IMG/VR virus record: IMGVR_UViG_2529292882_000013
Reading direction: 5' to 3' (one strand)
DNA length: 19,021 nucleotides
DNA from: a virus
Taxonomy: Duplodnaviria > Heunggongvirae > Uroviricota > Caudoviricetes
This document shows positions 14,940-16,327 of this stretch, piece by piece. Position numbers and translations under genes: made by a program. The notes below the pieces were generated by a model. The model did no database searches, was not told the DNA's origin, and saw only the letters and a list, made by a program, of their open reading frames with translations. Numbering within the stretch: the stretch's first letter is position 1; each line of letters opens with the position of its first letter.

Positions 14940-15269
14940 AGACGCCCCAAAGAAACGCCACCGCCTGTGGTGGTGTTTTTCCTGTCTGGTGTTATTGAAA
15001 ATATTTTCAGATATATATTACCTGAGAGAAAGTTTTACCCCTCACCTGTCAATTCACTCACTGGAAATTTAATTATGAAATTACCTGTAAAGTTATTAAT
15101 GAGCCTTATATCTCTGGTCAGCGTTATTGCACGTGCCGGGGAATATAAAAATTACAGCCGGGATGAAATAAAATACTGGCGATATACATCATACAAGGGG
15201 GGGAAACTTCCGGAAGGTTTCACTGATGAGAAATTTTCCAGCGCCATTTACAACGGAAGAATATTTACA

Positions 15270-15758
15270 ATGAAACGTTTACATACCCTTATGTTATTTC
15301 TGGCGGTTCTGTTCACGGGCTTTAACTTTAACGCAGAAGCGGCTACCGTAAAACAAGCTCTTAGTTGTAACCCGGAAGCCTGGGCTGAACAACCTGGAGC
15401 GTGTCCATCAACGTACGAGTTGTACGAAGGTGACGCTACCTACAAAGCCGCTATCGACAAAGCATTAAAACCGGTCGGACTGAGCGGCATGTTCGGTAAA
15501 GGCGGCTATATGGATGGCCCTGGTGGAGGTATCACGCCAGTAAACATTAACGGTACAGTCTGGTTCCAGGGCGACGGTTGCAAAGCCAATACCTGCGGCT
15601 GGGACTTTATCGTAACACTCTATAACCCAAAAACCCATGAAGTTGTTGGCTACCGTTACTTTGGTTTAGATGACCCGGCCTACCTGGTTTGGTTCGGTGA
15701 AATTGGCGTGCATGAATTCGCGTATCTGGTGAAAAACTACGTAGCTGCGGTTAACTAA
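15270..15758 (+). CDS. Small secreted 4-Cys protein, tentatively Ivy-like (lysozyme-inhibitor-like fold)
   Basis: Signal peptide MKRLHTLMLFLAVLFTGFNFNAEA; the motif GCKANTCGWDFIV resembles the Ivy loop region CKPHDCG plus following beta-strand. The same frame is open upstream to 14967 with an earlier ATG at 15075 (MKLPVKLLMSLISLVSVIARA), so the start is uncertain. AT-rich relative to surroundings. Confidence 0.55.
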   Translation: MKRLHTLMLFLAVLFTGFNFNAEAATVKQALSCNPEAWAEQPGACPSTYELYEGDATYKAAIDKALKPVGLSGMFGKGGYMDGPGGGITPVNINGTVWFQGDGCKANTCGWDFIVTLYNPKTHEVVGYRYFGLDDPAYLVWFGEIGVHEFAYLVKNYVAAVN

Positions 15759-15773
15759 TTTAAGGAGTCTATC

Positions 15774-16184
15774 ATGAAAACTTTTATCAAAACTTTACTC
15801 GTTGCTGTAACTATTCTGTTCTCTGTCTTCGCTACTGCGAAACAAGTAAAACTGCCAAATAACATCAAATACGTTAATACTACAGAAGCGTTTTCCTGTA
15901 CCGAAATTGACGGTATGAATTGCCAGACAAAGAATCAGTTCAACTATAAAGATAACAGCTATGTTTTCGTGCTTGAACGTGGTGGTGCCTGGTGCTACGA
16001 CTACACTGTCTCGGTAGTTAACCTGAAAACCGGGAAAGCACAAATGATTGAATACGGGGACAATCAACTGTGCTCAGGTAGCAACAAACCGTTCTTCGAA
16101 ATCAAAAATGGCGTACCGACGGTAGGAGTCATCGACACATCCGGAAAACCTGTCGTTGTAGCCCAGGACAAACTTAAAATCTAA
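15774..16184 (+). CDS. Small secreted 4-Cys protein of unknown function (136 aa)
   Basis: RBS AAGGAG 7 nt upstream; signal peptide MKTFIKTLLVAVTILFSVFATA; 15 nt downstream of the previous gene. Confidence 0.65.
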   Translation: MKTFIKTLLVAVTILFSVFATAKQVKLPNNIKYVNTTEAFSCTEIDGMNCQTKNQFNYKDNSYVFVLERGGAWCYDYTVSVVNLKTGKAQMIEYGDNQLCSGSNKPFFEIKNGVPTVGVIDTSGKPVVVAQDKLKI

Positions 16185-16327
16185 GGAGTAAACCATGCGT
16201 TTCTCTGCACATTATTAATATCAAAGGTAAATACAGCCCCAGCCATTGTTACCGGAAAGCCGCTTAATGCGTGGCTCGCCAGTGAAAGGCCTCTCAGACA
16301 ATAAACCTTATTCATTTCACCCGTCAG

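Follow-up and report, generated by a model that had tools for sequence, protein, structure and literature searches.

A predicted secreted-protein cassette of probable jumbo-phage origin, including a divergent Ivy relative, in a CP4-44-type island of Escherichia coli

Proteins of the Ivy family act in the periplasm, where they use a disulphide-braced loop to block the active-site cleft of certain peptidoglycan glycosidases, namely C-type lysozyme and some lytic transglycosylases. In the Ivy-lysozyme complex, the histidine of the loop sequence CKPHDCG enters the active site of lysozyme. Phage T4 encodes a periplasmic inhibitor of the tail lysozyme gp5, called Spackle (Sp), which functions in superinfection exclusion. 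The known targets of Ivy include C-type lysozyme and Pseudomonas aeruginosa MltB; E. coli MltA and MltB are inhibited weakly in vitro, and E. coli Ivy is a weak transglycosylase inhibitor with no effect in vivo (PMC10139938). Here, we describe an AT-rich islet (positions 14940-16220) in a 19,021-nt stretch of DNA, IMG/VR record IMGVR_UViG_2529292882_000013, which is E. coli DNA and is called the window below; its features lie on the plus strand unless a minus is given. The islet carries gene 1 (15270-15758), which encodes a divergent Ivy-family predicted periplasmic protein of 162 aa including its signal peptide, and gene 2 (15774-16184), which encodes a 136-aa predicted all-beta secreted protein with four cysteines from the phrog_8968/SPN3US gp182 family. 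It is well supported that the islet is a two-gene cassette from nucleus-forming jumbo phages (Seoulvirus, SPN3US/Asesino-like) lodged in a CP4-44-type E. coli island, behind a dynamin-like/YjcZ/patatin operon, and we hold this identity and origin with high confidence. The most likely function of the cassette would be the periplasmic inhibition of phage peptidoglycan-cleaving enzymes.

Comparison with the described systems brings out both shared and distinctive features. Like the Ivy proteins of known structure (E. coli YkfE/Ivy, 1GPQ and 1XS0; P. aeruginosa Ivyp1, 1UUZ; Pfam PF08816), gene 1 has a predicted Sec signal and a mature length of about 135 aa, and in the structure model it shares their fold, with a C-x4-C-G loop at the homologous position. 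Unlike them, it has a loop without histidine (CKANTCG), carries an additional cysteine pair (C33/C45) and scores below the Pfam threshold; its genomic setting is also different, in jumbo phages and on a mobile island instead of in the core genome, and it is paired with a second predicted secreted protein. Its likeness to T4 Spackle lies in the proposed logic, by which a small Sec-exported phage protein would block the hydrolase of an incoming phage; Spackle is all-alpha and unrelated to gene 1 in sequence and fold. With MliC/PliC, PliG and PliI the two islet proteins have in common the cellular compartment and the proposed general role, and neither protein matched any of these in Pfam, NCBIfam, PDB sequences or fold comparison. 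Gene 2 is closest to SPN3US gp181-gp183 and phrog_8968, with which it shares length, profile and position upstream of an SMC gene, although those genes reside in phages and the island copy of gene 2 in a bacterial chromosome.

The nearest relative of gene 1 outside E. coli (P0021, 59% identical) is encoded on a 64-kb metagenomic scaffold (L011), where it is flanked by two YfjT-family genes, a gp180-like gene, a gene 2 homologue, a gp183-like gene and an SMC gene; the SMC protein is 70-71% identical to those of the Erwinia jumbo phages Asesino, Stratton and phiEaH2. The same gene order recurs in IMG/VR contigs of 221-225 kb, with copies 59-75% identical to gene 1, and the copy in phage locus L027 is 76% identical to gene 2. 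At the DNA level, window positions 15259-16214 align with positions 5991-6940 of the L011 scaffold at 69% identity over 972 nt, colinear through both genes. Even the DNA that appears to be intergenic upstream of the Ivy-like gene in one E. coli island variant (L007) is a decayed gp180-like gene, in phage order. The phage cluster itself opens with one or two members of PF27224 (L011:4598-5551; L027:5106-5567), the family of the K-12 CP4-57 gene yfjT, a hint that jumbo-phage relatives exist for further small secreted proteins from islands of the CP4 type.

The exchange between phage and island may have occurred more than once. Gene 1 of the window is closest to its counterpart in an E. coli locus (L014; 81% amino acid identity) and gene 2 of the window to that of phage locus L027 (76%), while gene 2 of L014 is 82% identical to the phage L011 copy and 62% identical to gene 2 of the window. 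The nearest relatives are thus discordant across island variants, which argues for repeated phage-island exchange or recombination. The gene 2 family, with its several paralogues, is a stable component of these phages, which makes transfer from phage to island the more economical explanation for this gene, but the direction is not proven.

Base composition and a promoter motif bear further on this origin. The preliminary description had noted a sharp fall in composition relative to GC-rich flanks and suggested separate acquisition; both points hold up, the first with an islet G+C content of 0.39-0.49 against 0.53-0.57 in the flanks, the second through the DNA identity to the jumbo-phage segment given above and the phage promoter motif described below. 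By segment, the G+C content is 0.40 (14940-15074), 0.39 (15075-15269), 0.487 (gene 1 body) and 0.411 (gene 2), compared with 0.531 in the dynamin-YjcZ-patatin genes and 0.574 in the DUF932 gene on the other side; the phage value is 0.435. Minima in 300-nt segments are 0.36 at about 15001 and 0.38 at about 15751, which is 2.1-2.5 standard deviations below the window mean (0.502, standard deviation 0.057). The dip is real yet uneven, since gene 1 lies near the window average, and it is not unique, because the control region of a Mu-like prophage at about 7000-7950 is equally AT-rich.

Upstream of the genes lies a motif of the type found in promoters of phiKZ-like jumbo phages (14990-15035; core TTTCAGATATATATTAC at 15005-15021). 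The core fits a consensus, TTTYARRYAKATATTAY, built from published phiKZ-like jumbo-phage promoters (PMC7058600, Table 2), with a chance expectation of 0.00 matches. In four phage loci (L011, L028, L029 and L004), the DNA ahead of the secreted-protein cluster aligns with the motif region over about 40 nt, and the exact 17-mer TTTCAGATATATATTAC occurs about 4-5 times in each jumbo-phage contig of 205-246 kb in IMG/VR. We take motifs of the TATATTAC type, from the phiKZ literature, to be the early class that is read by the injected virion RNA polymerase. A second match to the consensus without mismatch, TTTCAGACAGATATTAT (chance expectation again 0.00), is found elsewhere in the window at 9384-9400 (+), right after the stop codon of a 383-aa open reading frame (8232-9383) and before a terminator-like hairpin. 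That reading frame was considered as a phage-related gene and rejected; it is unlike the 383-aa reading frame of phage locus L027 and matches no phage record.

The left edge of the islet is marked by a terminator-like hairpin (14956-14985; stem 14959-14975, 7 pairs, followed by the T-run TTTTTCCTGT), directly after the stop codon of the patatin gene at 14939, and in the phage loci a hairpin or T-run occupies the equivalent place ahead of the promoter motif. Gene 2 begins 15 nt past the stop codon of gene 1, so the two genes are probably co-transcribed; a Shine-Dalgarno sequence, AAGGAG, can be read at 15762-15767, 6 nt before the gene 2 ATG. The islet transcript would end at a strong intrinsic terminator (16326-16365) with a 13-pair stem that includes 8 G-C pairs, followed by a T-run.

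This arrangement bears on the idea, raised in the preliminary description, that the two proteins belong to the phospholipase module as its inhibitor or as an immunity-like pair. In such a model, the pair would serve the patatin, or the whole dynamin-YjcZ-patatin set, and protect the envelope of the producing cell. The pair does lie directly downstream of patatin on the same strand, and this order is kept in three island variants; in the E. coli variants that were examined the pair always follows dynamin-YjcZ-patatin, although patatin is not called as a gene in L014. The numbers of genomes are similar as well: the pair is present, at a coverage of at least 80%, in 2248 of 5426 complete E. coli genomes (1454 records being at least 99% identical) and patatin in 2499 of the 5426, with up to 4 copies. 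The co-occurrence breaks down, however, outside this setting. The pair is found in jumbo phages with no dynamin-YjcZ-patatin module around it (L011, L012 and L027), and the module is likewise absent from a CP4-type island that holds an Ivy-like gene (P0088; L017) in a different slot. Even within E. coli, the terminator hairpin and the separate phage-type promoter lie between patatin and the pair, one variant lacks gene 2 and another has an extra gene (gene X, see below). The patatin lacks a signal peptide and presumably stays in the cytoplasm, unlike the pair, for which export is predicted, and we know of no case in which the Ivy fold inhibits a lipase. The linkage to patatin within E. coli is accounted for by shared descent of one island and looks historical, not functional; the immunity proposal is very improbable.

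The annotated form of gene 1 requires comment, because RefSeq lists a longer product than the one given here. The RefSeq/PGAP form starts at 15075 and has 227 aa (WP_000775500.1) with two signal-peptide-like segments; most homologues have 160-161 aa and start at an internal MKRLHTLM, which corresponds to window position 15270. The origin of the extra codons can be seen in a common E. coli island variant (the P0014 type; L006-L010), which has no gene 2 and in which patatin is followed by gene X, about 360 bp of non-coding DNA and a 160-aa Ivy-like gene. Gene X there encodes an intact 180-aa secreted protein with four cysteines (L007:5098-5640; also in L006 and L008-L010), for which no precomputed Pfam match is on record, no Pfam scan of gene X itself having been made. 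Its first 63 or so residues are homologous to window positions 15075-15269, and a DNA alignment (A6) places a loss of about 708 bp in the window, from about codon 64 of gene X to just before the Ivy-like start codon. As judged from these alignments, the annotated 227-aa reading frame is a deletion fusion, in which a 65-codon remnant of a third secreted-protein gene (gene X signal peptide and N-terminus; 15075-15269) has been joined in frame to an intact 162-aa Ivy-like gene. In another variant (L014 and L015), the same remnant carries a TGG to TGA stop; the fusion in the window and the stop codon in this variant argue that the remnant is not maintained as coding sequence, and it probably plays no functional part in the product. 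Most likely, the functional form is the protein of 162 aa that carries its own signal peptide, which the present evidence favours over the 227-aa entry.

Export by the Sec pathway is predicted for both proteins from sequence features and from N-terminal model helices of low confidence (low predicted local distance difference test scores, pLDDT). Each N-terminus has K/R residues, a hydrophobic core (11-residue Kyte-Doolittle maxima of 2.51 for gene 1 and 2.87 for gene 2) and an A-x-A site, AEA|A in gene 1 and ATA|K in gene 2. The putative signal peptides are MKRLHTLMLFLAVLFTGFNFNAEA, followed by ATV, in gene 1 (15270-15341) and MKTFIKTLLVAVTILFSVFATA, followed by KQV, in gene 2 (15774-15839). 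Four cysteines in each protein are invariant or nearly so across homologues: C33, C45, C104 and C109 in gene 1, and C42, C50, C74 and C100 in gene 2.

The assignment of gene 1 to the Ivy superfamily depends on intermediates. Gene 1 matches no family in Pfam, NCBIfam, PADLOC or PHROGs, and single-sequence searches of the PDB with gene 1 and gene 2 gave nothing meaningful. An exhaustive profile search with an alignment of the narrow clade (A3) collected 57 proteins, among which the full-length distant relatives have loops of the form C[EKQ][AP]H[ND]C[GSP]; most of the distant relatives retain the loop histidine, as in CEAHNCG and CEPHNCG. All seven distant relatives that were scanned singly match Pfam Ivy at 22-36 bits, above the 21-bit threshold, and in a broader alignment (A5) 23 of the 25 sequences, E. 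coli Ivy among them, match it at E <= 0.1. When the window clade and these intermediates were combined in one profile (A8), the only PDB matches were Ivy entries (1gpq and 1xs0, both E 1.7e-12; 1uuz, 3.8e-9; 4ps6, 4.5e-9), even though the identity of gene 1 to solved Ivy structures is about 15-22%. The predicted fold of gene 1, with helices, a five-stranded antiparallel sheet and a C-terminal helix, is the Ivy fold.

The profile alignment to 1gpq sets the gene 1 loop CKANTCG (C104-C109; 15579-15599, within GCKANTCGWDFIV at 15576-15614) opposite the inhibitory loop CKPHDCG of Ivy, and C104 and C109 are the only invariant columns once E. coli Ivy is included in the alignment. The second cysteine pair, C33...C45 (SCNPEAWAEQPGAC; 15366-15404), is nearly invariant in alignments A5 and A8, and E. 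coli Ivy has no cysteines there. On sequence profiles and the structure model, gene 1 is a divergent member of the Ivy superfamily, in a subgroup marked by the extra N-terminal cysteine pair. The description of these proteins made from the sequence alone has stood in its essentials: both N-termini have signal-peptide features and A-x-A sites, with typical n-, h- and c-regions in gene 1, each protein has its four cysteines, the CKxxxCG-type motif is encoded as GCKANTCGWDFIV, its resemblance to CKPHDCG without the histidine is matched by the A8 alignment, and the Ivy-like fold, offered tentatively, now has profile homology to four PDB Ivy entries and a structure model that shows the fold.

If gene 1 is an Ivy relative, then perhaps it has the classical role of Ivy and guards peptidoglycan against the C-type lysozyme of an animal host, as an accessory factor in colonisation or virulence. 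Membership in the superfamily fits this role, as does the wide distribution of gene 1 in animal- and human-associated E. coli, including Shiga toxin-producing strains (STEC), and an E. coli paralogue (P0014) retains the histidine in its loop, CKAHACG, and reaches 16.8 bits (E 0.0077) on Pfam Ivy. The loop encoded in the window has lost the histidine, however, and E. coli already has the core ivy gene. It is also difficult to see what lytic jumbo phages, in which the closest relatives of gene 1 occur, would gain from resistance to animal lysozyme, and we consider the classical role unlikely. The loop variants within the clade (CKANTCG, CKANACG, CKSNACG, CKSDACG and CKAHACG) have N, D or H at the position of the histidine; these alignments combine a conserved scaffold with variation at the positions expected to contact a target.

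A search of GTDB species representatives with gene 1 found only a Shigella flexneri locus. Several relatives of the Ivy-like domain have additional modules. Three proteins (P0088, P0090 and P0129; L017:3795-4745) carry about 150 extra C-terminal residues with four cysteines, and P0090 has a weak match to DUF7908; that this C-terminal domain is a fused gene 2 was considered and dismissed, as BLASTP found nothing and hhalign gave a probability of 0.4%. The P0088 gene belongs to a CP4-like island; DUF932/DeoR-type genes lie on one side of it and RadC-CbeA-CbtA genes on the other, and it is next to genes for DarT and a Macro-domain protein. In the 1335-aa protein P0108 the Ivy-like profile matches four stretches, P0122 (439 aa) joins an Ivy-like module to a long C-terminal extension that by eye looks caspase-like (His/Cys), and P0125 and P0127 have the module at the C-terminus. 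A canonical Ivy homologue was found in just one record of a 50,697-phage collection, that of Escherichia phage PHB10 (MK524177.1, 14591-14950; 38% identical to E. coli Ivy, E 8e-23), where it is annotated as hypothetical.

Gene 2 has no sequence match in Pfam or the PDB, and its predicted structure fits no known fold, but its phage affinity is clear. Searched against Pfam, NCBIfam, PADLOC and PHROGs, it matches phrog_8968 alone, at E 2.6e-45, with residues 1-131 on positions 1-133 of the 135-position profile, and a tblastn search found 40 phage records, all of them jumbo phages of Salmonella, Erwinia, Escherichia and Proteus. Gene 2 is 35-37% identical to the gp182 homologues, and SPN3US gp182 likewise has 136 aa. 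Next to gp182 in SPN3US are gp181 and gp183, which are also small, signal-peptide-bearing proteins with four cysteines, and the gene 2 family is paralogous by profile comparison to gp183 (95.7% probability) and gp181 (93.2%). A profile search of 5.8 billion proteins returned only entries from E. coli, a few Salmonella, one partial Proteus mirabilis sequence and jumbo phages, every one of them named hypothetical. SPN3US gp181 (163 aa) was also tried as a cryptic Ivy homologue and rejected, since the BLASTP E value was 2.0 and hhalign groups gp181 with the gene 2 family.

Are the two genes functional in E. coli, or are they decaying phage DNA whose reading frames have hitch-hiked into the island and have no current role there? 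Decay is certainly evident in the surroundings, where gene X is truncated, the gp180-like gene is a pseudogene and the island is rich in insertion sequence (IS) elements and pseudogenes; moreover, a sigma-70 consensus promoter was looked for upstream of gene 1 and not found. The genes themselves argue otherwise. Their ratios of nonsynonymous to synonymous substitution rates (dN/dS) against island and phage copies are 0.13-0.22 for gene 1 and 0.14-0.22 for gene 2, with dS saturated in some comparisons, and between two E. coli island variants the values are 0.16 and 0.18; both genes are under purifying selection. The reading frames are intact in more than 2200 genomes, all cysteines are conserved and a knock-down phenotype has been reported (10.1101/2024.04.20.590424; see below). 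Loss of function in E. coli is therefore improbable.

The explanation that we prefer is as follows. Gene 1 would be an Ivy-fold protein exported by Sec to the periplasm, where its disulphide-braced loop, which varies between copies, would fill the cleft of a glycosidase that phages use on peptidoglycan; candidate targets are tail-associated lysozymes or transglycosylases and endolysins. In the jumbo phage, such an inhibitor might serve superinfection exclusion or lysis control, and in the island it might confer phage resistance. Gene 2 would be a co-transcribed and co-inherited periplasmic beta-protein partner. As a whole, this explanation has about an even chance of being correct, and its central part, the inhibitory mechanism and the target, is somewhat more tentative. 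Each of the alternative explanations is nonetheless less likely than the inhibition of phage hydrolases.

Functional information comes from a preprint on PHAGEPACK, a CRISPR interference (CRISPRi) screen of E. coli O121 for genes that limit T7 (10.1101/2024.04.20.590424). Among the genes described is hypo_04657, an Ivy-like protein with a 'CKANTC' loop, for which inhibition of phage lysozyme was proposed. In clonal validation, its knock-down gave T7 efficiencies of plating of 1.09, 1.5 and 1.0 compared with 0 for the control, a full rescue equal to that obtained with the O-antigen and enterobacterial common antigen (ECA) genes wecA, galE and rfaH, and the authors suggested a relevance to the cell surface. 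By its Ivy-like structure, its loop and a matching single guide RNA (sgRNA) site, hypo_04657 is the same gene as gene 1: the spacer GCTGTAATTTTTATATTCCC (Table S1 of the preprint) is the reverse complement of window positions 15139-15158, an exact match and the only one in the window. Its authors take the 227-aa annotation at face value, as a single protein of two domains with a 'C-terminal alpha-helical transmembrane domain', whereas here the helical part lies at the N-terminus and consists of the gene X signal-peptide remnant plus the signal peptide of the Ivy-like protein. The Ivy-likeness of gene 1 had thus already been flagged there; the jumbo-phage origin, the retained promoter, the partner family and the fusion-ORF (open reading frame) artefact are new, the preprint dealing with neither phage origin nor the partner gene nor polarity.

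Several points weigh against phage-hydrolase inhibition by gene 1, some from the protein itself and others from the T7 experiment. Scanned alone, gene 1 has no match to Pfam Ivy (PF08816) at E <= 0.1, lying below the 21-bit gathering threshold, and the narrow-clade profile A3 finds Ivy in the PDB at an E value of about 1, ranked under a spurious mannanase match. Its loop shares 4 of 7 positions with CKPHDCG, and asparagine replaces the histidine. Gene 1 by itself thus falls outside the family in two features, the Pfam score and the loop histidine, and its Ivy membership is transitive only, at the superfamily or edge-of-family level as far as profiles can place it. In the T7 experiment, the sgRNA targets the gene X remnant, which precedes gene 1 as well as gene 2, and knock-down should therefore silence the two together; given this polarity, the phenotype is not assignable to gene 1 rather than gene 2. 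The effect also exceeds what the blocking of a dispensable entry transglycosylase would lead one to expect, so an off-target effect or a link to surface polysaccharide is possible. T7 lysozyme, gp3.5, is an amidase, and to our knowledge it offers no target for Ivy. The preprint, which has not been peer-reviewed, used one sgRNA for validation and describes no off-target or polarity controls (10.1101/2024.04.20.590424).

The possible link to surface polysaccharide raises another explanation, in which the protein regulates the cell's own lytic transglycosylases or envelope homeostasis and affects, for example, O-antigen or ECA display indirectly. Such a regulator would explain why knock-down mimics surface-polysaccharide mutants for T7, given the same full rescue as with wecA, galE and rfaH and the surface relevance suggested by the preprint's authors. 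We know of no link between Ivy and O-antigen, however, and the phage origin of the gene argues for a phage-directed role. The biochemistry can be read either way, because Ivy proteins inhibit MltB and MltA in vitro while E. coli Ivy acts weakly on transglycosylases and has no effect in vivo (PMC10139938). On balance, we assign own-envelope regulation a low probability.

If gene 1 does inhibit phage hydrolases, then a periplasmic inhibitor of peptidoglycan-cleaving enzymes, derived from phages and serving phage resistance, is present in about 40% of complete E. coli genomes. Such a mode of defence is barely represented in current catalogues, since neither gene 1 nor gene 2 matches a described defence-protein model in PADLOC (PADLOC-DB v2). 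The finding would also provide a first functional handle on the small secreted-protein cluster that is conserved in SPN3US/Asesino-type jumbo phages, and would put on record that genes, together with a phage promoter, have moved between lytic jumbo phages and CP4-type islands of the chromosome. A bolder version can be envisioned, in which the cassette is a captured superinfection-exclusion module of a jumbo phage that has kept its own phage promoter, of the TATATTAC type: on infection by a Seoulvirus-like phage, the phage itself would activate the island copy of the periplasmic Ivy-like inhibitor and its partner, and the inhibitor would then block the transglycosylase or endolysin of that phage, and the cassette may independently be a strong barrier to T7 in O121. 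This would amount to a defence triggered by the transcription machinery of the invader; we consider it decidedly unlikely.

The remainder of the window consists of a prophage end and the island. A Mu-like prophage adjoins the island, and its left end takes up positions 1 to about 7900, with a gp11-like gene (1331-1861, minus strand), Gam (1960-2484, minus), MuB (3988-4926, minus), MuA transposase (4964-6952, minus) and a repressor-type Mu DNA-binding protein (7367-7891, plus). From about 8200 onward the sequence is that of a CP4-44-type island, which in E. coli O157:H7 TR01 lies near an Asn tRNA gene and which contains many IS elements and pseudogenes. On the 3' side of gene 1 and gene 2 is the DUF932 gene, followed, according to the TR01 annotation, by antirestriction, JAB/RadC-like yeeS and cbeA/cbtA toxin-antitoxin genes. 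On the other side are the genes for a dynamin/CrfC-like GTPase (10574-12970), a YjcZ/RdcB-like protein (12967-13872) and a patatin-like phospholipase (13869-14939), whose overlaps of 4 nt at each junction suggest a single operon; the set is a mobile paralogue of K-12 crfC(yjdA)-yjcZ to which a lipase has been added. The dynamin-like and patatin proteins have weak PADLOC matches, to LeoBC (8.6e-5) and to a phospholipase effector (1e-4).

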